56,383 nucleotides of DNA, filler included, from Sphacelaria rigidula (GCA_964200075.2; 4 parts of 4 records of this genome joined end to end with filler, not necessarily neighbours in it); one strand, 5' to 3'; positions 14,023 through 42,364 are shown, counted from the first letter of the whole stretch. Translations and numbers: made by a program. The notes: generated by a model from the letters alone, not told the origin.

Positions 14023-14122
14023 NNNNNNNNNNNNNNNNNNNNNNNNNNNNNNNNNNNNNNNNNNNNTTAATTAATTAANNNNNNNNNNNNNNNNNNNNNN
14101 NNNNNNNNNNNNNNNNNNNNNN
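14023..14122. other. Artificial contig spacer (N44-TTAATTAATTAA-N44)
   Basis: Six-frame stop linker at 14067-14078. Confidence 0.97.
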
Positions 14123-15769
14123 CCTGCTCGTTAAAATCCCCCCCCCGTGTCCCCAACAAAATCATGGGGCCCCCCCCCCCCCCCCCGTGTCGCGAGGATT
14201 TTTACAGGCAGTCCCCCCTGTCTCGCGAATATTTTTGCAGCCCCCCGTCTCGTGAGTGTTTTTGTAGTCCCCCCCTGTTGGCAGTATGTTTCTAGTGGTG
14301 GTAATGGTAGAGGTGTCAGCGATGCCGGAGCTACATGTATGCTGTTTCTCGTGTCCTTCCGTATCTGACGATATTCGCATCTCTGTTCACTTTACCACGA
14401 TGCACGTTCATTTTAACCTTTGCGGTGAAGATGTCACCCTGCCTTCTGATGACGGATATACCCTACCGTGCATGGTGCGGCCGATCGCAGACAAGCTACG
14501 CGCCGGTCTGCTGCAGAATGGCGGAGCTTTGCCCCGTGGTGGGGGAGATATTGTGTCCATGTCAGCGCTGCAGCACGTCGGCAGCGCTGCGCACGACCTT
14601 GTGGACCAGCTCACCGTGCGGGTGCCGCCGGGAAAAATCTCGCCTCAATCACTGCGTCGACAACGTCTATGCGACCTATTCCGACGCGGAGCCATGTCAC
14701 CGCGTCCAACTGCATATCGACTTCCGCGCCCTACTGTTGGACGCTGCTGCTGCTGGCGGGGAGACTGCGAATGGGGTTCACAAGCGTGTCCTCTTTGGCG
14801 AATCACATTTGCGCGCTTGCCCAGGCACACCTTCATTATCTCCTGCGACAAGGATGTTACGCGATGACTCTCTTTGAGGTCATAGGAGTATAGCCGGGTT
14901 GGTTTGGCAGAGCTGACAGTGCAGAGGTGGACGATGGGGAACGAAAATCTGGGTCGGAAGGGGAGAACAGATTTCACCGGATCGCGCGATTGGCCAGTTA
15001 TGGTGTTCGTGGGTGAACGATGGAAGGCGAACGCCTGGGTCGGAAGTGAGAGGTGGGGGGAGATGCACCCCCACCGAAGCGCAATGTCGGCGATTTGTCG
15101 AAGTCGGAGTGTCGTTCGATCTTCGCTTTCTTGTCGAACGTCTTGGCAGGAGCGGTGGGATCAACCACTACGGAGTTGGTGATTTCCACGCCTTCCTTCT
15201 TGTTGCTTGCGTTATACGAGAATTGAGCCGATGAGGGTGCTACCGGGACTGTTCTGAGCTCGTCGGAGGTGGTCGTCGGGCAATACTGTATGGTGAGATT
15301 TCCCCCCACGTGCGTTTACAGTATCGCGAGCGTCATACCCCTCCAGGCTCGGTGCGTATCGCTTTGTAGCGGTCCAATCTACAAACTCGATAGCAACTAA
15401 CTCCGTGCTAGTGACGCAAGTTATGAACGCTATCACTGAGTAGCGTCTGGGGTCGCGCAAACTCTTGTAACCCCACATGGTATGTAACAAACAGATCGAT
15501 GACTGTTCAAATAGTGGTAAATGTCCCAATTATGGTACGTTTAAGGCACCTGACGGGAAAAGCTCCGTTTCGTAGGAACCATGGCACGTACAACAATGCC
15601 AGGGTATCCGCAGAGAGACAATTCAGTCCTCCATCACTCAAACGTTTCAGAATTACAAACTAATCCAACCAAGTTGCAGGAGTAACAGTGACGAATGACT
15701 TTATTGACATGAAAAATGCAGCCAAAATACCCTCTGTTCCAATTAAGGTACACTTTACGTAACAGTTGA

Positions 15770-16380
15770 TTTCTCGCGATCTGGGACGTTTTCAGAGCTT
15801 CCCCCTTGGTACAATCTTCATGAGATTGGTGCGATCCGTTTTGCAGGAGAAAAAAATATATATTGCGGGGATGAAAATGGCCTATCCCCTGGTTGTCCGA
15901 ATAAATTTCGCCATCAAGTCTGTGTTTGGCAACGCCGTACTCGACGTCAACCATTTATTTTTATTTTTACCCCAGTGATGTACGATTTGAGAGTAATCTC
16001 CCAAAACCTTACCACACCAAAACCTGACCACGGGCTGGATTGTTGCAATCAGCTAATGTGAGATGATCAATCAATGAAAACCCCCAAAAGTTGGTGTTAA
16101 TCGGTTACGATGAAGGTACTCTGTGACAAACGTTGAGTGATGCCCCCTGATCACTCATTTTTCACCAGAAATCGATAGTGACTACGGGAATGGAGCACCT
16201 GGGACGTTTCAGACCTTCTCCTTTGGTACAAATGTTCATGAGGGTAGTGCAGTCCGTTTTGCAAAGAAAAAAAAATGCGGGGATGAAAATAGCCTATGCC
16301 CTAGTTTTCGGAACAAATCTGACCATTACGTCTGTGTTTGGCAACGCCGTACTCGACGAAAACACTCTTTTTTTATTTTC
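15770..16380 (+). repeat. Tandem host repeat interrupted by the YR element (units ~15780-15960 and ~16195-16380; continues ~24620-24920)
   Basis: CTGGGACGTT..AGA.CTTC.CC.T.GG.ACAA ... GGCAACGCC shared by three copies, on both sides of the element. Confidence 0.7.
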
Positions 16381-16404
16381 CTTGTTTTTTGACCCATCGA
16401 AATA

Positions 16405-16880
16405 CGTCAGTATTTTCGAGTCCATTCTTCTCCTCAGACAGTATGAGGTCAAAACAGTGGTATCATCTTCCACGGAGGTCGGTGTATCCACTTGTCGTGA
16501 ATAGGAAGAGGAATGAGTGTTGCTTGAACTGGTGATGAGCGATTAAGCAACACTCATTTCTTCTGGATATTCCCGATTTTAATGAATTTCGGAGAAATGT
16601 TTGGACTGAAAATAACTTCTGCTGGGTGGGTGGGTGGTGTCTCAACAGATGACTGTTTTATCTCTGTTTTCCTGTGGAAAACAGGGGATGAAATTGAAAA
16701 GTGAGGCGAGAGGCTGCTCTCTGACAAACATGTCTTTTTATCTTATGACGTAGTTTGTAAATATTACATCTTTATCAAATGACTCTTTTGATAATTCGTC
16801 AGTATTTTCGAGTCCATTCTTCTCCTCAGACAGTATGGGGTCAAAACAGTGGTATCACCTTCCACGGTCGGTGCATCCAC
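16405..16880. repeat. 3' terminal block of the YR element: B2 (16405-16491), spacer with hairpin, A2 (16637-16796), B1 (16797-16880)
   Basis: CGTCAGTATTTTCGAGTCCATTCTTCTCCTCAGACAGTATG... occurs twice; B1 directly abuts A2; a 14-bp perfect stem at 16512-16525/16545-16558 lies in the spacer. Confidence 0.88.
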
Positions 16881-17149
16881 TCCTTCCCTCACTCAAGAAG
16901 CTCTCTGGCTCATCAAGGCGGTTTCGAGGGCTTCATCTACCCCATACTGTATTAAAACCTGAAGACGTTGAGCCTGGCGTTGTTTTATGGACGGAACACT
17001 TATTATATGAAAATAAACTGGAGGCCTTTCACTAAACGCTGCCCACGATTGACTCTGTTCTCGAAGTGGGAACTCGTCTCGTTCTCTCTATATATGCTCT
17101 TCAGTAATACCCTTGACCATACCCGTGCCCTCAGAGCTTGGAGCTGCAA

Positions 17150-18300
17150 CTTCTATCAAGCGCACATACCGCCACGCTGTTTTTGGATTTTACAGTACGC
17201 TGGTTGCATAATTGTCGACAAAGAATCGCCCGCTAAGGCTCGTGTGAGCACCCTACCAGATCGGAAAGAATGCAGGGAAAACTCTTGGGTTTCGCGTGCA
17301 GCGTGTCCATATCGCTTCAGTGCGGCCGACATTTTTTTATGTCGTCACGGGCAAAACGACCCCGTGTAGGCTTTTGCCATATTTCAAATTTTCCGGTTGA
17401 AACATCCGGAAACGAATATCCTGACGTCATGTCTCATCCGAATGCGTTGCATACTGCCACCCATTGTTCTACCGCTCGAAGAGGACAAATGGCACGTAGT
17501 CGTCTTTTATGGTATCGTGATAATGTGATCGGCTCCGTCGCGTTGGTTTTCCTTTGAAAATTGAACATGAGCGCGCTCTTGTTCGGGAGCCTGAGCTAGT
17601 AACACTCTCTTTGTTGCGGATGAAGTGGTTTGTAGTCGCATTCTCATCGGTCCGAGTATGACTGCTAAATGGGTAGGTAGGATTGTCGGGGCTTGTTTTC
17701 GTTCCGCCGTGGTGAACACACCTGTGTGTTTTTGTTCTCCCTTGGTGAGTGTCATATACTGAGCTTTCGCCATACGGGGTTGCCGATCTGCAAAGTACTA
17801 CTCCACGGTGTAACTATCCCCAGATCCTTTTCAAACGCCATGATCAACTCAGATACGTGATTCATTCTAAGGGAACCGTAAGTGTATCGGAGATCACGCT
17901 CTCCCACCGTTGTTGAGCAGGCCGAAAGAGCTGTGGTGCCTACTGCGGTACAGTGCTCAACATGTACAACCGTCCTCCGTCTCCCACCAACAGATGAACT
18001 ACGATGTTTTTGGGTTGAGCGTGTTCGATAGCCGTGTTCGTGCGATTAGATCGCGACTTCAGGGAACTACTGAATAATTCCCATGTTGCCGATCTACTTC
18101 TAGTGGACGCTGCCGAAGCGGTTGTGAACTATCATACATATCTTCTGTGGACTGTGTGTTCATCTATCTGTAACCCCTATCTCCTTGTTTGCAATGGTTA
18201 TCGGAGACCGTATCGCCACATGATTTGGCAAAAACTATATCCCTCGTCATTTTTACTGTGACAAGTAGGACAGAACACGCGTGCGCTTGGAGCAGACGCC
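17150..18300 (-). pseudogene. Tyrosine recombinase remnant with N-terminal Cys motif
   Basis: FCPTCHSKNDEGYSFCQ, RDGADH, CPLRAVEQWV...GYSFP and the catalytic-box motif SLHSFRSG (17278-17255). Confidence 0.8.
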
Positions 18301-18912
18301 CGGAGAAGCGGGCGAGCGCGACCTTGTTCGGCGCTTGGTTGGTGTCCAGAACGAAATAGGGTTCCCAGAATACTCAGAGCGAAAGTGAGCGCCGGGTACA
18401 CAGTTCGCAAAGCCTGGGCATAGTTTCGCGATACAGTCAGTGTAAGCGTAGAAATTGGCGTTGAGATCATTCGATGATAATAATCTGATCATTCCCTACG
18501 TTTTGAAACAGAAACGCTCCTGACCCTTTTGGTGACGAATCTTGAAAATAAAAGGGCGAAGCCCGTGTTGGAAACAAAAGCCTTCTAGTTACCTTGCTGT
18601 AGCGCTGACTAGTCTGGGGGACCAAGGCTGTTTCCGATACGGCACGATGATAACTGCCTGAACCCTGCATTCCTCGAGATGCTGGAGCAGTATCCCGACC
18701 GTACGCGTGGGTGGGAAACCAAAACCAAACATGCTCTTTGCGAACCCGGCATGTGACTGACATCTTGTGTGAATACGTCGACGCGTGCGCACGCACCCCT
18801 GGGTATGGTGAGGCGAGTAGAATTATATATTTTCTTCTGTGCATTTTCTTGCCCACCACCGTTCATGAACCGAGGTAGGAGTAGTCATCAAATCGATATC
18901 AAACCCGCCGGC

Positions 18913-19280
18913 TCAGTCACTTGATTTCACGAGCACGGATTTGTCTAGTCTGACATATTTGTCCGACCCAGGTCGCGATATACCGTCGGCTTCCGCGTTT
19001 GTAGTGAAATGATGCCATGCATAGCCGTATTCCGCGCTCTGCCTCTTTGAAAAGAGCCATGGAGGCCCTTGTTGTCTACATCCGAAATGAGAGGGAACCG
19101 GTGAGCTGACCAGGGTGGTCATCACAGAACAAACTCGACTCTGCTGCAATGCGTACCCTTCCTGCACGTTGATGTGTTATTTTCCTATCTGTGGTGGAAA
19201 TCACCTCTTGCTCTGTAGATAAGATGTTCGGGGCTACTAACCAGACCGCCTCATCCGCTTGAAGACGCATCAGATGCCCT
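18913..19280 (-). pseudogene. DIRS-type RNase H remnant
   Basis: SDASSSG*GGLV followed by HINVQEGYAL (DAS..GWG / HINxxE motifs), directly downstream of the RT. Confidence 0.75.
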
Positions 19281-19454
19281 AGTCAAGGAGAGCATTTTAT
19301 GTTCCACTCTGTACCATGAGACTCCATTGAACTGTGCTCGAACCCGCAACCACTGCTCAACCTCGAACATAAGGCCACTGTTAGCTGGGATGTCGTTACA
19401 GTATCCGCACTTCGCATTTTCCCCCTGTACGTTGAAAATTTGCCATCTGTTTGT

Positions 19455-20185
19455 TCATGTGATGCGTATATAGCTTTCCGCCGGGGTCTCGAAACGACAA
19501 GAAAACTGGATCACAGGTAACACGTAGGAGCACCAAACGGATAGTGGGTTGAAGTTGACACTTCGGGACCGAGATAAAACTATCCCGCTCTGTACTAGAC
19601 CTTCAATGCCAATGCGTCGCAGTCTGTGTGGCTTTGAACTGCGCAGCTGGTTGTAGGGTATTGGTAGACCTGAAACTCGTAACGTAGAAGTCGTCGATCC
19701 ACGTGAGGGTTGAACGCCCTTGGGACGTAGGGATCGAGCTACAGCTTCGGGCAAGGATGTGTACATTACGGGTGTCAAACACCATCCGAAGGCAAGAACG
19801 GTGACCACATGAAAGTGGCCTTCCCGTCCACAAGCAAAATATTGAAATATTTTCACGAATCCTGTTGAAAAGCTACATGGTGATCGCCCGCCTTGTGGTC
19901 GATCGTCATCTGATGGGCCCCTGGCCATGTGCCTTGAGCGACCTTACCTACTCCGTCCAGAGTAAGAGGGACATGATTGCATATCAAATTGAGTCAGCGC
20001 GCGTCCCAAATAAGTCTAGGGTTCGCTGTTTCGACCCCCAAGGGTAACACCGTATGGGGCTTACTGTCGGTTGTCGTATCGGCTATGTCTGCCCAGCGAG
20101 CAACACATCCTCCACGTACGAGTCCTGTGACTTCCTCGGTGACCCAAGAGCGGTATTCAACTGGAATATGATTGGGGAAAATGCA
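19455..20185 (-). pseudogene. DIRS-type reverse transcriptase remnant
   Basis: PHTVLPLGVETANPRLIWDAR, DHKAGDHHV, VVTVLAFGWCLTPVMY and TLTWIDDFYV (WIDD at 19701-19690) across shifted frames. Confidence 0.85.
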
Positions 20186-21485
20186 CCTGTGTAAGGTCTG
20201 CACCATTGAACCTGCGGCCCTGAAACACACCGGTAGCGGTGTGTGTGTGTGTGTGTGTTGTCGTCTCATTTATTCCGGGCGCCAGTCTACCCCTTTCGGG
20301 ATATTTGGGGTCAACAAATGATGCATAGGAACGCCGTGCACCTAGCCAAGTAGGGTGTCACGTTCGGCCTCAGGAGTTTCTTGTAAGATCGCTTTTTTCT
20401 AGTACGAGACTGCCGACTGGAGATGAGCTGGAACAAAACATTTGTCATCCATATCGTAGCCTGTTGTGTTCTACGCTGTTCTTGCAATAGGACCTCATTA
20501 TTGGTGAGGTCGATGGTCGAGCTCTAGTCTTGCGACTCGCTTAGAATCGTACCGTGAACTCTGTGTACCAACGTTTGCAGTACGCTGTACTCGCTCGGCT
20601 CAAAAACGATCCGCCCCAATCCAACCCGCGTACGAGTATTTATTACGGGGTTGGGCAAGTGGAAATATATTTTTATAATAACATGGAAATGGGGATCTGT
20701 TTCTTGTGAAAGACACCGTTGCGAGCTTCCTACGGGAAATTATACCTGTCTACATGTAAAAAGTATGAAATCGTATTTGTATGAATATATACGTCGGAAA
20801 AACATTATGTTTTCATACTTGGCAACAAAAAGTATTGAAACAAAGGTGTGAGAAAACTAAAAGGGTCCTCGCGCTCAACCGTCGACCAAAGTCCGAGCCA
20901 AGAAAAGGGCAAGGTGCAGAGGTGTTTGGAGAGGGTCTGGAGTTGGGTGGGACATTTCATCATGTGAATTCGATGTATGTAAAATATATTCGGATAGGTG
21001 ATTTGTCCTTGCGGCCGCTGAAAGGGAAAACAAAATCGAATCATAATACGATGATTCGATAGCGACCAGCCACTATACCTTTTTGATATGAGCTCGAATG
21101 CAGTATTAATAGTATACTGCAGCGGTCGAGAGGGTGCGGAGTGGCCATAATCTCGGATGGCCTCCCATGCTCTACTGGAAAGGAAACAAAGCAGTGTCGA
21201 AATAGTGAGAAATATTGAATTAATCATTTTTCATCATGCCTTTTCGTTACTGAACATCATGTATCCAGGAGGTCTCACACTGTAAAAGTGACACACACCT
21301 GTCGGCAGTAACTTGGAATTACTGCACGGAACGAAAAGCAAAGGGGGTTGCAAGTTTATATCAAAACAAAGAACTAAAAGGGGCAGACGGAGCAGACCAG
21401 CCGATATCACCCGCTGAAGGGCAGTGATCGACTGCAACCGTATACAATGTCGACGGGACACATGAGCGGACCAGCCCGTCGATCC

Positions 21486-22200
21486 CTATCCATTCGGGCA
21501 GTTACACTTGATATGCCTGAACTGGTGGCACTTTCTGCAATCCACGAGAGGGCACACCCTGTTGAGAATGCAAAAAACCAGCGCCTCGTTTTCCTGCATC
21601 CTTGCACCGGTTACACATAGCCGGCTTCCTTCCACTGTTACTGTTACTACCATCATTCCCGCGCCCGCGTACCGGGCCGTACTGGCTTTGCACTCTGACG
21701 CCCGCGTACGCGGACGATACAGACCATATCGGTTGGTTGTTGTAGCCGCTGGTGTGTCTCGGGTGCATAAACGAGCGGTTCGGCCCCCCGCTCCTGGCAT
21801 CCCCAAGAAATTTGGTTACCTTGGCGAGCTCTTTGACGACCCGGTCCATGTTGACCGTTCGCCCTTGTTTGGATGCACTCATTAGTTTGTTGTGCGTCTA
21901 GATGGCTGCGGCCTCCAATTTGTTGCCGAGCAAGCTGTTCTCGAGCCCCGCTTCCAACGTCGCGATGAACGACCCCTCTTCCTTGAAGTTCGGGTCCATT
22001 TGAGCCAAACGTAGTAACTCACGAACAGTGTAGTACATGTCGTGGATCAGCGGTAGCCTTCCACTGTCGTTCCAATGTCCCACTGACTTGCATGTGGTGG
22101 TCTCCGTCAGCAAAGTGAAGAGCAGGTTTTCGAACTCAGAGCAAAGAACAAAGGCCGGCAACAACAAGCACGTTGGACCGTGAGCGTGTGCCGCGGGAGC
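21486..22200 (-). pseudogene. gag-like ORF remnant of the YR retrotransposon with CX2CX4HX4C zinc knuckle
   Basis: CRKCHQFRHIKCNC at 21539-21498, preceded by CNRCKD and a G/R/N-rich linker; frameshifted. Confidence 0.7.
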
Positions 22201-22790
22201 CAAACACCACATAGCTGGGTGCCTCATGAAAGTGAAAATAACACCGGGATGAACTGAACCGAAAGAAAACCACCGTGAGAAGAGGGGCCTACGTCCGGAG
22301 GTGGCGAAATTGCGAACCACGTACAAAACGATACATTTGAACAATACGATGAGCGATCCCGAACGTAACCCTGTGGTGGCGAAAGGTGGTCCAGTTTTAA
22401 ATCGGCATAATCTGTATTCATTTTTTAAATGACAGTGATGTCGACTTATTAGTAGATCATCTTTCGTGAGCAAAGGTTTAAAATCAGCATTGAAACCTCC
22501 TGGCGGGGTAGAACCACCTCCGAAATAACGCCATCTGGAACTCGCCCGGACTCGAAATGAGTTGGCAAGGAGATGTGAGCACAGCGTAAGTGTAATGAGT
22601 AATAACCGGGAGCGCGAACCAGTTTGAAACCCGAGCGTGTCTGACCCATGCCAGCGGGTTCGAAAAAGGCAAAGACAGCTGGAAACATTTGCCGATCATG
22701 AGCGGAATAGGAAAACAAACGAATAAAGAACGTGCGAATTCGTCGGGACGCAAACCGGGGAGACCTCAACCCAGATCTGTGCATGGCTAA

Positions 22791-23082
22791 GAACAGCCGG
22801 TTTCAAAGAGCCAGGATGAGCTTGAAACTGAAACTAGGCATGAACTATGCCGAGAGCAATGAGAACAGCCAGTGGAAAAGAGCCCGTATGAACTTGAAAC
22901 TGAAACAAGGCATGAACTATCCTGAGACCAATGAGGACAGCCAGAGGCAACGAGCCAGTATGAACCTGACACTAAAACAAGGTATGAACTTATGCAGAGA
23001 GCAATGAGAGCAGCCCGTGTCAAAGAGCCAACATGAAAGTGACACTGAACCAAGGCAGGAACTGTGCGGAGAGCAATGAGCA
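22791..23082. repeat. 72-bp tandem repeat, 4 diverged units
   Basis: CAGCC unit starts at 22794, 22866, 22938, 23011 (spacing 72, 72, 73). Confidence 0.9.
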
Positions 23083-24332
23083 TCATGAGCCAATCTGAAC
23101 GTGAGCTGGGCCGAAACGTCGATGGTGGAAAAAATAGCCTGCACCAATGAGCTAGTATGAATATGCCACTGCACATCGGGAGAGGAGGCGGGGGAAAACA
23201 CCGTCATAATGAGCAAATCCAAACGTAAGGTGGTAGGAGATGTGAAACGGGTATGAATATCGCAGGAAGTAGCTGATACTAATAAAGAAAGGGCGGAATG
23301 AACCCCAGCCAGACAGAAAGGGAGACTGGGCGTGAACTAGGGAGGGAGTCAATTTCCTGCACAAATCCGGTTGAAAGCGAGCTGTCCGGAAATTATGGGG
23401 TCAAGGCATGACCGTGGCCAAAACACCGAGTGGTCGGAGCTGCTTCCACCCTAATTGATGGAGGGAGGGGAGCGAGGGTAGGGAGCTTTGGGACCGGGGA
23501 ACATGTGTTGTTGAAACCTACCGGTGCACATCTGAGTAACGCAACCATATATCGATGGCTCGCAATGTGAGTTGAAACGTTCAACATAATGGAGAGGTCA
23601 AGTCGTGTGTGTATGTATGTCCGTTCCTAGAGAGAAACAGGTACGAGAATAGGTACGGGCGAACATGAAGAAAATTAAAACAAAAACGTCCGCGCGGAAG
23701 ACGTACTAATAATTGCATTTCGAACATAAATTTGGATCCGTAACGCACATACAAGAGTTGGTAAGTGAAACGGGAGGTGACCCATATAACAAAGAAACGA
23801 ATGAACAGAACTCGCTCTACGGAGTGCACAAAGACGAGTAGCGGCAAAATGGGTGGAAAGGATAAAGGAAAACGTCCACGCTCTCGCTGTGGTCCTACGA
23901 TGTAAGAAAGAGAACGATCTTACGCACAGTATAGCGGAATTTCGAGAACTTCTGAACGGCAATCCGTGAGTGGCTGGTATCCACTGATGGAGCGAGTGGT
24001 TGGTAACCACTGAAAATGAAATAAAGAAATTCGAAGCGATACACACATATAGACATGGATATATACCGATGCCGCCGCATCGAACACGGTGTTCCTGGGA
24101 ACTCGTGAAAATACCATAAATCGTGGCACATAAGGTGCGAGAACTGTAGGGAGAGATTGAACAGTAGTGGATCGCCCTCCCGAAAACGTCACGCTTACAT
24201 ATGACTCACCTGTCCGTATTGGACACGAGGGTAAAACGGCGCTTTGAAGTCGATTTGGTCGCGGCGTCCCCCGGAGGGCTGAGGTTGTCCCGCGAGGTTC
24301 TTACGCTCCTCTAGGGATTCAATGGTCTCCTG

Positions 24333-24449
24333 TCCGTCGAAAGCTCATTTCTACTTCCGAGAGACTCATACGTGGAAACGTGAGTCCGGAAGGGTGTAAA
24401 GAACGAAAGCCCCGGGTCGAAAGACCGGGGCGAGTAGACTGACGACGGA
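24333..24449 (+). other. Candidate structured RNA/ssDNA element (nested multi-helix junction with GNRA loops)
   Basis: Hand-folded pairings: 24333-39/24443-49; 24350-55/24433-38; 24356-59/24387-90; 24363-68/24381-86; CGT-GGAA-ACG; GCCCC(G)GGTC-GAAA-GACCGGGGC at 24409-24431. Function unknown. Confidence 0.55.
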
Positions 24450-24451
24450 AC

Positions 24452-24610
24452 GTGTCTCAACAGATCACTGTTTTATCTCTGTTTTCCTGTGGAAAACAGG
24501 GGATGAAATTGAAAAGTGAGGAGAGAGGCTGCTCTCTGACAAACCTGTCTTTTTACCTTATGACGTAGTTTGTAAAAATTACATCTTTATCAAATGACTC
24601 TATTGATTAT
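24452..24610. repeat. Split direct repeat A1 (5' terminal repeat of the YR element); copy A2 at 16637-16796
   Basis: ~160-bp near-identical copies: GTGTCTCAACAGAT...GAAATTGAAAAGTGAGG...ACATCTTTATCAAATGACTC. Confidence 0.9.
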
Positions 24611-25619
24611 ACGTTGTGACAGTGATGTCCCGGAATTTGGTGCTCATGGGTTACAAGTAAAGGTACTATGACGCACGTTGAGAGATGTCCCCTAATAACT
24701 CCTTCTTCACCAGATATGGACAATGACTACGAAAATGGAACACCTGGGACGTTCCAGACCTTCCCCTTCGGCACAAACCTTCACGCATCACAATCCATCT
24801 CTTTCCCGCAGCGAAGAGGGAAAAGAGTCGATTCGAGGACAAAATTGGCCCATCGCCGGAGTTGCGGAAACAATTTTGACATTCTTCTCAGTTTTCGGCA
24901 ACGCCAAACTAGACCAACACGTCCGTAGAGCGCTATGCTTTCCGTTTGTTCGTAACTACCCAACCAATTGGAATTAGTTTCGACATAATTCTCGCAAAAG
25001 TTGGTATTCAATGGATGTGACTGAGATACAATGAGTTTAATCAAAATCGACGATGACTACGAGAACAGCAGACGCAGCTCGCAGACAGCAGCGAACACGA
25101 AACAGAGCAACGAAGCAGTGAAACCTTCGTCGACTATTCCTCCGTGATGACCTTCCACGCCTTGGTCCCTTGCGGAGTAACACCTACGGCGAAGATGTCC
25201 ACGAGTGGCGTCTGTAAAGGAGAGAGGGGAGGGGGTACGGTACAGAGTAGTATGTCGAGTATCGGGTGGTACGCACAGTACTGGCACCTACTCTAGTGAC
25301 GGTACTTGCAACACCTCTACAGACACTAAAGGCAGTACCTGTGTAAAGAAGAAGTGCAATCAACAGAATACGCCGAGACAGCAATGAGCAGACAAACGCC
25401 GAGTGATGTGTGGGCCAAAAATGCGGCGAAATGTTTACCATTTCAAACGCAGCATAATTCAGAGGAGGCGAACACCACTCCTAACTCAACCCTAACTCTA
25501 GCTCTCGACACATGCGTTGTATCACATGAACGGAACGGCTCTCAACCTTTGGGAACCCAGTGCTGATTTTTGTTCTTGTGAATCGGCATAATTTTCGTTC
25601 ATTTTCGTTCATTTTCAAG

Positions 25620-26120
25620 TCAAAATAAGGCCGATTCACAAAAACAAGAATCAGCCCTGGGTTCCCGAAGCGTTAACGGGCTGTAAAGCACCTGCCTCGT
25701 CAGCATTCCATATGTGGTCGGGTGCTGGCTTCTCCTCGTCCATGTTGTCCTGCCATGTCGCATGAAACTTCTGCATGCGCGATCTTCTGCGTCAACCAGC
25801 ACTCCTGAGCCTCGTAGATGGCACCGAGCGGTTGTCGCTGCAGAGTGCCATAACCGCCTGTTTCAGGTCATCTCTAGTCAGGCCCAGTTGACGTGCGGCG
25901 AATATCAGGATATGTTCGACGAAATTTTCTGCCGCCGGCGACAGTACAGTGCGCGGGCCAAACCTGCCAGCTATGCTCACGCTACCCCTGACATGCTTCT
26001 GCAGCAAAGCAAGGGAGATTTCAAAGGTATTTGCAGCAGCACGGAAAGTCATGCGACCGCTGCGTACCGCTTCTACGGCCTCGGCTGCACGTTCTGGGTC
26101 CACCCTTGCTTTCTGCATGC
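25620..26120 (-). mobile_element. pogo/Fot1 (CENP-B-like) transposase N-terminal remnant
   Basis: AAEAVEAVRSGRMTFRAAANTFEISLALLQKHV (psq-type HTH) then GPRTVLSPAAENFVEHILIFAARQLGLTRDDLKQAV (Tc5 HTH); no DDE domain seen. Confidence 0.78.
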
Positions 26121-26449
26121 TTAGCAGCCGATCGAAATTTCTGGTTTTGGAGAAAGACAAGCGCTCATTCGCGGTGCTGTGGGACGTTCTTTTCTTATAC
26201 TATAGGCACCTGCAGTAGCTTAAACGAAGCGTCGTGCTCTTGTGCACACGCAGCAACAAACAGAATGGAAAACGAACAATACTTCGCGGAGTTATGTACG
26301 ATCGAAAACACTTGTACCTTAATTAATACTGTACCTTAATAGGGACATGTACTCTACTGTACAAACAAGACACCCATGAGGCAGTGTGTCAGCCGGGACT
26401 GTCTCAGGACGTGGCAAAACGAGAAAATGAAGCAGCCCATTCGAGGCTG

Positions 26450-26830
26450 TCATCCAAATGCAAGATATTCAGTACGCTTCGCCCCGAAGAATCTTAGCAG
26501 GGTGCAGCTCACCCTCCATGCGACTCGCCGAACACAGCACGGCGCTTCGCACTTGGTGATTGATTGCGAGCCTGGTCCGGCGAAAACCCGGCGTGCTCCG
26601 TTCCGGCTTTGTAGGGACGCGGGGTCAATGGCCATATGGCTATGACATGCAAAATCATGAGGACACCCCCCGGCCTTTGCCCTTTCTTCACAGTTCCCAG
26701 TTACACCAACCGCTCCGCTTCCCTGGTACTCCATGTTTTCTTGCTGCGTACATGGATCTGACCGCCTCGTCGAAGCGGGTGTCGGGGCACGCTTGCCGGG
26801 AAACACCGTTAAAGCGTTGCAGGTAGCGCT
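26450..26830 (-). mobile_element. Second copy of probable hAT C-terminal remnant
   Basis: Homologous to 30870-31030 (shared ...AGTEHA.F.PDQA... and GARRV.AGPG translations). Confidence 0.4.
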
Positions 26831-28144
26831 TTCTCGTGACCCTCTGGGCGGCTGGCTGGACGATCATGGGAGGTCAAGTGGGTACAGCATGTCCTTCAGC
26901 TTCAAACGGAGTCGGAATCGACCGCTACATGAGCACGGTCATTCCTTTAGGGGAAAGAGAGTGGGCATTTGTCAGGGCAGGACGAACTGCCCGAGGTTAA
27001 TCACCCGGCCCGATCCCAACTAAAGTACGGTGGCTTTTACAGGTTCAAGCAGCTCACCGGGGTTGGCGGTCATCCCCATGAACAAAACCACGCACAGAAG
27101 CCCAAGTACTTGTTGCCTAGCGTTAATGGTATGGGTTTGATGCGTTCACGTTCAACATCACGTTGATCAACGAGTTGGAAAACGCAGCTATCAACCGCAG
27201 AATATGCGACTCGGCGATCGAGCGTGCAAACGAATCACAACCATCACGCCCACGGCTGCTGCGCGTAGGTGCGAATTTGTGGGCGCTGCTTCTGCAACTC
27301 GCCTCTGATGAGGTCGTGAGACAAAATGGATGAAGTGTGCATCACCCGCCTGGCGGATGAACATGATATTTAATTGGAGTCGGGTTTTCCCGAGGGATTC
27401 GGGGCATATGGTGTGCGTCGTCTACACGGTTACCGTAGATGAAACTGCGGTAGAAAAGTAGCCCCTTCTGTGTCTGTTCTTTCTTTTTTGATCATGTCGT
27501 GCTGGTGTTGATCTGACCTTGCAACGCTGAGCTGGGCACATGTGCGGGCCTCATTTGATTGGGAGATTTGGTTTACTTCTACCGTGACACCAGTACCAGC
27601 TGGGCTGCAATGTTGGCTACAGGTTCAAATTCCTCACCGCACACTTTATTCGATGTTCCATTTTTTACAACCTGGGCGCGGCGGACGGGGCCCCCGATTT
27701 CAAATATAAAAATAGTTACCTGTGCCAGGAGTCGCACAAGCGAACACCTAGCGTTCACCCATGTTTTTTTCGTATTTCTTTGAAAGTTTTGTTTTTTTAT
27801 TACACTCTAGGCAGGCAGGGGACCACGGGGAGAAGATCTTCACACACGGAGCACCCCCCACCCCCCTTCATGTCAAATTCGCATGGAGGTTGGAGTCTCG
27901 TAGTGAGATACCCGTAAAACCTTACCGGCTTCGATTGGGCGGTGGACGTCTGGTCAGCCATTTCCAGAAATTTCCGAAATTAGGTGCAAAGGGCGCCTAA
28001 TGAAGGCAAGGGGTGGACAATGCATGGTATAAATGCCAAAACCTACTGCACTCATGAAAAAAAACACCTTGCCGATGACCGACCACATGACCTACGAGAA
28101 GGAGCACCAAGCGGTACGTAGACTTCTTGAGATCTTGAAGGATA

Positions 28145-42264: not shown

Positions 42265-42364
42265 NNNNNNNNNNNNNNNNNNNNNNNNNNNNNNNNNNNN
42301 NNNNNNNNTTAATTAATTAANNNNNNNNNNNNNNNNNNNNNNNNNNNNNNNNNNNNNNNNNNNN
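42265..42364. other. Artificial contig spacer
   Basis: Identical 100-nt linker. Confidence 0.97.

Follow-up and report, generated by a model that had tools for sequence, protein, structure and literature searches.

The closest described systems to the locus analyzed here are the Ngaro elements, which belong to the DIRS order, a group of tyrosine-recombinase (YR) retrotransposons. Their published layout, as given in the available part of PMC8547959, is A1-[ORFs]-B1A2B2, with direct repeats that are split. The available part of PMC12477816 reports that Ngaro elements are abundant in the brown alga Ectocarpus, where they form 15 families. According to the accessible sections of PMC7192593, the primer for reverse transcription in DIRS-order YR retrotransposons is not known, which agrees with the original prediction for our locus, where priming in this order was described as poorly understood. 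For DIRS-1, the same sections describe a hairpin proposed as the primer and identify a linear single-stranded antisense cDNA as a true intermediate. PMC4600332 describes self-priming in Tf1 and Tj1, where the principle is a duplex formed within one molecule at the PBS position. In those portions of the literature that our search covered, we found no account of a structured leader signal in Ngaro elements.

The window, by which we mean the whole stretch of 56,383 bases that was analyzed, consists of four pieces of ~14 kb joined by linkers, and continuity of features should therefore not be presumed at the following positions:

14023-14122: linker, N run around TTAATTAATTAA
28145-28244: linker, N run around the same sequence
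42265-42364: linker, N run around the same sequence

The fold under study and its host element both lie within the piece at 14123-28144 (14,022 nt). At the start of this piece, straight after the linker, there is a run of 17 G on the minus strand (C on the plus strand) at 14170-14186.

Judged from its repeats and coding remnants, the fold resides in a Ngaro-type YR retrotransposon of the minus strand, an ordinary dead member of this known group. The original prediction had placed the fold beside the 5' repeat of a decayed minus-strand YR retrotransposon, and the repeats, together with homology in pol and YR, bear this out. Read in the sense direction, the element consists of a short B tail, A1, the fold, a leader of ~1.7 kb, gag, RT/RNase H, YR, B1, A2, a 144-nt spacer and B2. 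The repeats and the features next to them are as follows:

24452-24614, minus strand: repeat A1, 163 nt, 95% identical to 16637-16799
16880-16890, minus strand: purine run GAGGGAAGGAG, 11 nt, polypurine-tract-like, abutting the start of B1
16793-16881, minus strand: repeat B1, directly upstream (in sense) of A2, 92% identical to 16401-16492
16637-16799, minus strand: repeat A2
16493-16636, minus strand: spacer between A2 and B2, 144 nt, with a 19-bp hairpin at 16505-16563 (z = -5.97)
16401-16492, minus strand: repeat B2, the 3' end of the element

The locus resembles Ngaro elements in that its split direct repeats stand in the order A1-[ORFs]-B1-A2-B2 and in that a gag knuckle, RT/RNase H and a putative tyrosine recombinase are all found on one strand. 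It deviates from the published scheme by the structured spacer that separates A2 from B2, and it also differs from these elements in its long leader before gag and in being a dead copy. The fold that follows A1 and the spacer that follows A2 share no homology (local alignment score of 19, equaled or exceeded in 19 of 300 shuffles). The spacer hairpin, which lies near the 3' end of the element, recalls the 3' hairpin that accessible sections of PMC7192593 discuss as a proposed primer for the DIRS-1 RT.

On its sense strand, the 14,022-nt piece has 17 purine runs of at least 10 nt, among them the run at B1, and by our own estimate the chance that such a run falls within a few bases of B1 is ~0.01-0.02. 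B1 begins with TG right after the purine run and A ends with CA(C), and these termini resemble LTR ends. Both A repeats contain a perfect 9-bp hairpin with a 3-nt loop (CTGTTTTCC paired with GGAAAACAG), located at 24479-24499 and at 16664-16684. A1 and A2 differ at 8 of 163 positions, and seven of these eight differences are transversions, which is unusual for neutral decay. Four tandem units of 72-73 nt that are 69-81% identical occupy 22774-23080 in the leader/gag region.

The coding remnants of the element all lie on the minus strand:

21498-21539, minus strand: gag-type CCHC zinc knuckle, CX2CX4HX4C, read by eye in translations
18487-20449, minus strand: RT/RNase H pseudogene, with YxDD at 19681-19701
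17255-18308, minus strand: putative tyrosine-recombinase ORF remnant; an intact relative aligns with its N-terminal zinc ribbon and ALOG-like part

The RT/RNase H is of the type found in YR elements. When 18500-19872 is read through its 14 in-frame stops (457 codons), the translation matches 73 library proteins at E values of 1e-3 or below, with a best E value of 6.5e-45. RVT_1 is present in three of the eight homologues that were scanned, and the alignment shows both the YxDD and the RNase H blocks. With nine relatives as tblastn queries, every match falls within 18487-20449, and therefore the window contains no other element of this kind.

The candidate recombinase was recognized through a related contig (L009), to whose ORF3 positions 17591-18308 align by tblastn (E value of 8e-35). 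This ORF3 matches the Pfam family ALOG_dom at 26.6 bits, exactly the cut-off. ALOG is related to the domain through which DIRS-type recombinases bind DNA. At 17255-17272, a recombinase-like "HSFRSG" was recognized by eye only. Pfam searches with the stop-rich read-through frames of the element recovered only the zinc ribbon DUF7577, and no integrase domain was detected by Pfam in these frames. A methyltransferase domain, the feature by which Ngaro is told from DIRS1/PAT elements, likewise gave no Pfam match, which in frames so full of stops is weak evidence. A word-based protein search with the element returned no match.

The fold itself lies between A1 and the remainder of the leader. Its parts, including two that had been proposed earlier, are listed here:

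24333-24339, plus strand: 5' strand of helix P1, TCCGTCG, with pair probabilities of 0.64-0.97 (plus) and 0.68-1.0 (minus)
24443-24449, plus strand: 3' strand of P1, CGACGGA, the first helix strand after A1 in element sense
24356-24390: hairpin 1, 13 bp with two bulges, loop at 24374-24377 reading GGAA (plus) or UUCC (sense strand)
24391-24408: A-rich single-stranded linker between hairpins 1 and 2
24409-24431: hairpin 2, 9 bp and a single bulged G, loop at 24419-24422 reading GAAA (plus) or UUUC (sense strand)
24350-24355 with 24433-24438: inner helix of the original prediction, TCTACT/AGTAGA, with pair probabilities of 0.05-0.10 on both strands
24266-24318: "GCGA-looped" 5' domain of the original prediction, unsupported

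P1 is a 7-bp closing helix whose last pair (24449) falls 2 nt short of the start of A1 at 24452, just as had been predicted. Hairpins 1 and 2 and P1 have pair probabilities that are mostly at least 0.9 on either strand, and all three persist when 381 nt of the sense leader are folded together. Thus the outer helix, the two hairpins and the A-rich linker were found where the original prediction had put them. The proposed second closing helix was not upheld, given its low pair probability, and this leaves the junction ill-defined. The structure as first drawn has 35 pairs, all 35 of them Watson-Crick with no G-U, and energies of -44.2 (plus) and -43.2 (minus) kcal/mol versus MFE values of -48.5 and -47.3 kcal/mol.

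Folding energies were compared with those of 200 dinucleotide shuffles. The core (24330-24452) reaches z = -3.42 on the plus strand, where one of 200 shuffles is as good, and z = -4.47 on the minus strand, where none is. With DNA parameters, the plus strand gives z = -4.52, and again no shuffle is as good. The whole span of 24266-24451 is no better than its shuffles (z = -1.28 with 20 of 200 as good, and z = -1.65 with 7 of 200). The core thus folds better than shuffled controls and the full span does not, and the GCGA-looped domain is therefore not supported. We regard P1 and the two hairpins (24333-24449) as a real local structure in the 5' leader. The A-repeat hairpin combined with hairpin 2 gives z = -5.6 for the segment 24403-24525 on the plus strand.

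We propose that the core fold may be a cis-acting leader signal for replication of the element. Our confidence in this reading is evenly balanced, and with one dead copy at hand it is a lead rather than a result. The location of the fold 2 nt past A1, taken together with the purine run at B1, fits an LTR-like scheme with B+A as the LTR. In such a scheme the fold, with its first helix strand immediately beyond A1, would occupy the place where an LTR element has its PBS domain. B+A would act as the LTR, and the integrated A1...B1A2B2 arrangement would correspond to the opening of a two-LTR circle at the B|A border. First-strand synthesis or a template switch would then be organized just downstream of A1, and second-strand priming would take place at the purine run before B1. 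As in the PBS domains of retroviruses and LTR elements, there is a multi-helix domain ~2 nt past an R-U5-like repeat and a purine run before the other repeat, and like their leaders the fold would work as a leader cis signal. Unlike those elements, the locus shows no TGG or tRNA complementarity in the sense sequence read just after A1, and it carries a putative recombinase instead of an integrase.

We place roughly even weight on the two strands that could act, about half on the sense genomic RNA and about half on the plus-strand first-strand cDNA. On the sense RNA, the structure would be a PBS-domain or packaging-type leader fold that organizes initiation, strand transfer or packaging. On the cDNA, it would be a plus-strand fold-back near the 3' end of the first-strand product. 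The cDNA version is suggested because the GNRA loops occur on the plus strand only, because every pair is Watson-Crick, and because the fold is equally good with DNA parameters. The loops do read as GNRA only on the strand opposite to the ORFs, as was predicted, and they are the sole argument that discriminates between the strands. The lack of any G-U pair fits a fold that forms as DNA or on both strands, and it equally fits plain DNA palindromes.

That last point belongs to the principal competing explanation, which we regard as a real possibility though one held with less than balanced confidence. It states that the helices are functionless short palindromes, produced by chance or through local template-switch mutation within a long, decaying noncoding leader, and that their adjacency to A1 and their GNRA loops are coincidences noticed post hoc. 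To gauge the chance background, we folded 696 segments of 123 nt from the piece at 14123-28144 with 30 shuffles each. Values of z at or below -3.42 occur in 20 of the 696 segments and values at or below -4.47 in five. The fold is thus among the top 1-3% of local 123-nt segments in a favorably chosen register, and it is not unique. Other spots in the piece, at 25563, 16483, 22363 and 25203, are equally or more structured. A 7-bp helix that begins 0-5 nt past the boundary, as P1 does, appears in 268 of 5,000 shuffles (5.4%). All of these results favor a functionless origin, as does the failure of the full span to exceed its shuffles.

Hairpin 2 provides a further example in the same direction, in that its 23-mer recurs identically in an unrelated bacterial terminator located after groEL (the one match in a metagenome scan). 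GAAA-capped GC hairpins like hairpin 2 evidently recur by chance. Against a functionless origin stand the nesting of three independent helices in a compact domain exactly at the repeat boundary, a core that beats 199-200 of 200 shuffles, and the matching purine run at the other repeat boundary. The loops also argue against it, because GNRA sequences account for only three (plus) or four (minus) of the 81 perfect tetraloop hairpins with stems of at least 5 bp in the window, whereas both loops of the fold belong to this class on one strand, an unusual outcome, though one noticed post hoc.

The element is dead, which also suits functionless palindromes, and the state of its pairing was originally offered as a sign of function on the grounds that pairing is intact although the ORFs have decayed. 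The decay of the ORFs is confirmed by the stops in the RT/RNase H frame. The argument drawn from it carries little weight, because the divergence between A1 and A2 and between B1 and B2 predicts only ~2-3 changes in the 70 paired bases since insertion. By our own arithmetic, the probability of observing zero changes is ~0.07-0.18, and the existing bulges of the fold may be such postinsertion hits. The many stops alongside repeats that look young suggest, we infer, that the copy was already defective at insertion or that its repeats have been homogenized.

Copies and relatives were sought in sequencing runs of the organism and in other collections. For each of the runs X1, X2 and X7, the fold is covered by a single contig, whose depth is the same as the summed depth. 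A single copy in three runs is again compatible with a functionless origin. In the contigs of these same runs, the fold was not seen as part of another repeat, which counts in favor of the leader-signal reading; the original prediction had named occurrence in an unrelated repeat as damaging to its case. Many contigs from the runs of the organism pile up from 24640 onward. Among the variants listed, T24312C and G24401T are the only ones in 24266-24451, and both are unpaired and uninformative. The latter (run X9, one contig) is the only listed variant inside the core and lies in the A-rich linker. Run X9 has diverged copies, such as a 769-nt record that aligns only to 24411-24612.

A search of viral contigs by protein alignment and two DNA patterns gave no relative. 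A MAG from a prokaryote genome collection (G001) yielded three contigs with related pol genes. These three contigs (G001 loci L002, L009, L010 and L011) carry intact or nearly intact Ngaro-like pol ORFs that are 40-63% identical to P0013. The bin is labeled as a Rickettsiales bacterium, and its Ngaro-like contigs very probably represent contamination of eukaryotic origin. G001 shows no DNA similarity to the leader (best E value of 1.4), and a covariance model of the fold found no match in its contigs, which may not reach the leader. Upstream of pol, these contigs, again with the reservation that they may end before the leader, show no comparable fold; the contig ends give z = -0.7 and z = +0.3, and the best sliding segment reaches z = -3.5 in one of two contigs. 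When the single-sequence covariance model (R1) was run against the window and the loci, it recovered only itself, at 160.7 bits, and the next hit scored 11.7 bits (E value of 0.59).

The cis-acting leader signal could in principle be a primer arrangement of a known type, and the sequence next to A1 was compared with each. A TGG-type PBS is absent after A1, where the sense sequence begins GTTCCGTCG, and ARAGORN finds zero tRNA genes in the window. A self-primer of the Tf1/Tj1 type is likewise absent, in that neither A1 nor the 186 nt upstream contains a complement of at least 7 nt to the post-A1 sequence. Long-range complementarity between the fold and the remaining element is limited to three chance 10-mers. 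The locus shares with Tf1/Tj1 an intramolecular duplex at the PBS position, but here the post-repeat strand pairs 104 nt downstream and not with the RNA 5' end. With DIRS-1 it shares the order and a hairpin suggested as primer, and an antisense single-stranded DNA intermediate like that covered in the accessible sections of PMC7192593 could carry the plus-strand fold; DIRS-1 differs by having inverted repeats plus an ICR.

A more ambitious form of the leader-signal proposal, which we consider rather unlikely, is that the fold represents the module through which YR retrotransposons with split direct repeats carry out initiation or strand transfer. P1 would then serve either on the genomic RNA, as an intramolecular primer/PBS duplex, or on the single-stranded first-strand cDNA, where it would form a GNRA-capped fold-back close to the 3' end and prime or protect that cDNA. 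If this were true, the module and the purine run together would mean that replication of Ngaro elements follows the pattern of LTR elements, with B+A in the role of the LTR. A structured signal at the repeat/leader border, paired with a purine tract at the other border, would supply a concrete model open to mutational testing. Such a model addresses a gap in the understanding of DIRS-order elements, namely the start of reverse transcription and the completion of the ends, insofar as this gap is laid out in the available sections of PMC7192593.

Very unlikely is the idea that the plus strand acts as an antisense RNA, either as a self-cleaving ribozyme of a new class or as an antisense primer or regulatory RNA. 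The restriction of the GNRA loops to the plus strand and the z value of the plus-strand fold (-3.4) are in its favor, and accessible sections of PMC7192593 describe antisense species in the cDNA and RNA biology of DIRS-1. As judged by family models, however, the fold belongs to no known ribozyme or RNA family. A search of Rfam at gathering scores returned no hit anywhere in the window (including twister, pistol, hatchet, HDV-like, group I/II and tRNA models), and at E values up to 10 the region 23500-25200 gave nothing besides a subthreshold match to Hammerhead_1. The earlier statement that the fold lacks hammerhead and group I/II matches is consistent with this search, and its description as ribozyme-like is without motif support. 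No link between ribozymes and Ngaro or DIRS elements appears in the titles and abstract openings of the literature searched. Furthermore, there is no sign of an antisense promoter or transcript, and the opposite strand folds equally well.

The hammerhead was rejected as a candidate on the basis of its score (15.4 bits against a gathering score of 34, with an E value of 4) and because the CUGAUGA box aligned to gaps. The fold resembles type I/III hammerheads in having three helices around a junction and in the presence of "GAAAC", but without the CUGAUGA core it is not a member.

Core sites of Cre/FLP/Xer-type tyrosine recombinases have spacers of 6-8 bp between their inverted arms. It is very doubtful that the fold is a duplex-DNA site at which inverted repeats bind the tyrosine recombinase of the element or another DNA-binding protein, since, although the palindromes are perfectly Watson-Crick and a YR is encoded by the element, the spacers within the hairpins measure just 4 nt, the integrated element ends at the B/A border and not at the fold, and the long-range pairing of P1 is meaningless in duplex DNA.

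Several repeats lie outside the element in the same piece. One of them, a high-copy repeat ~118 nt long and distinct from the YR element's own repeats, occupies 24660-24777 and also matches 16088-16232. Sharp loose ends mark it at 24660 and 24777, and its summed contig depth in run X9 is very high. The strongest structure in the piece, with z = -6.55, is a 49-nt inverted repeat at 25547-25670 whose arms are 88% complementary around a 26-nt spacer. Just past the 3' end of the element, a direct repeat pair occupies 15781-15967 and 16199-16379, and its two copies are 81% identical.
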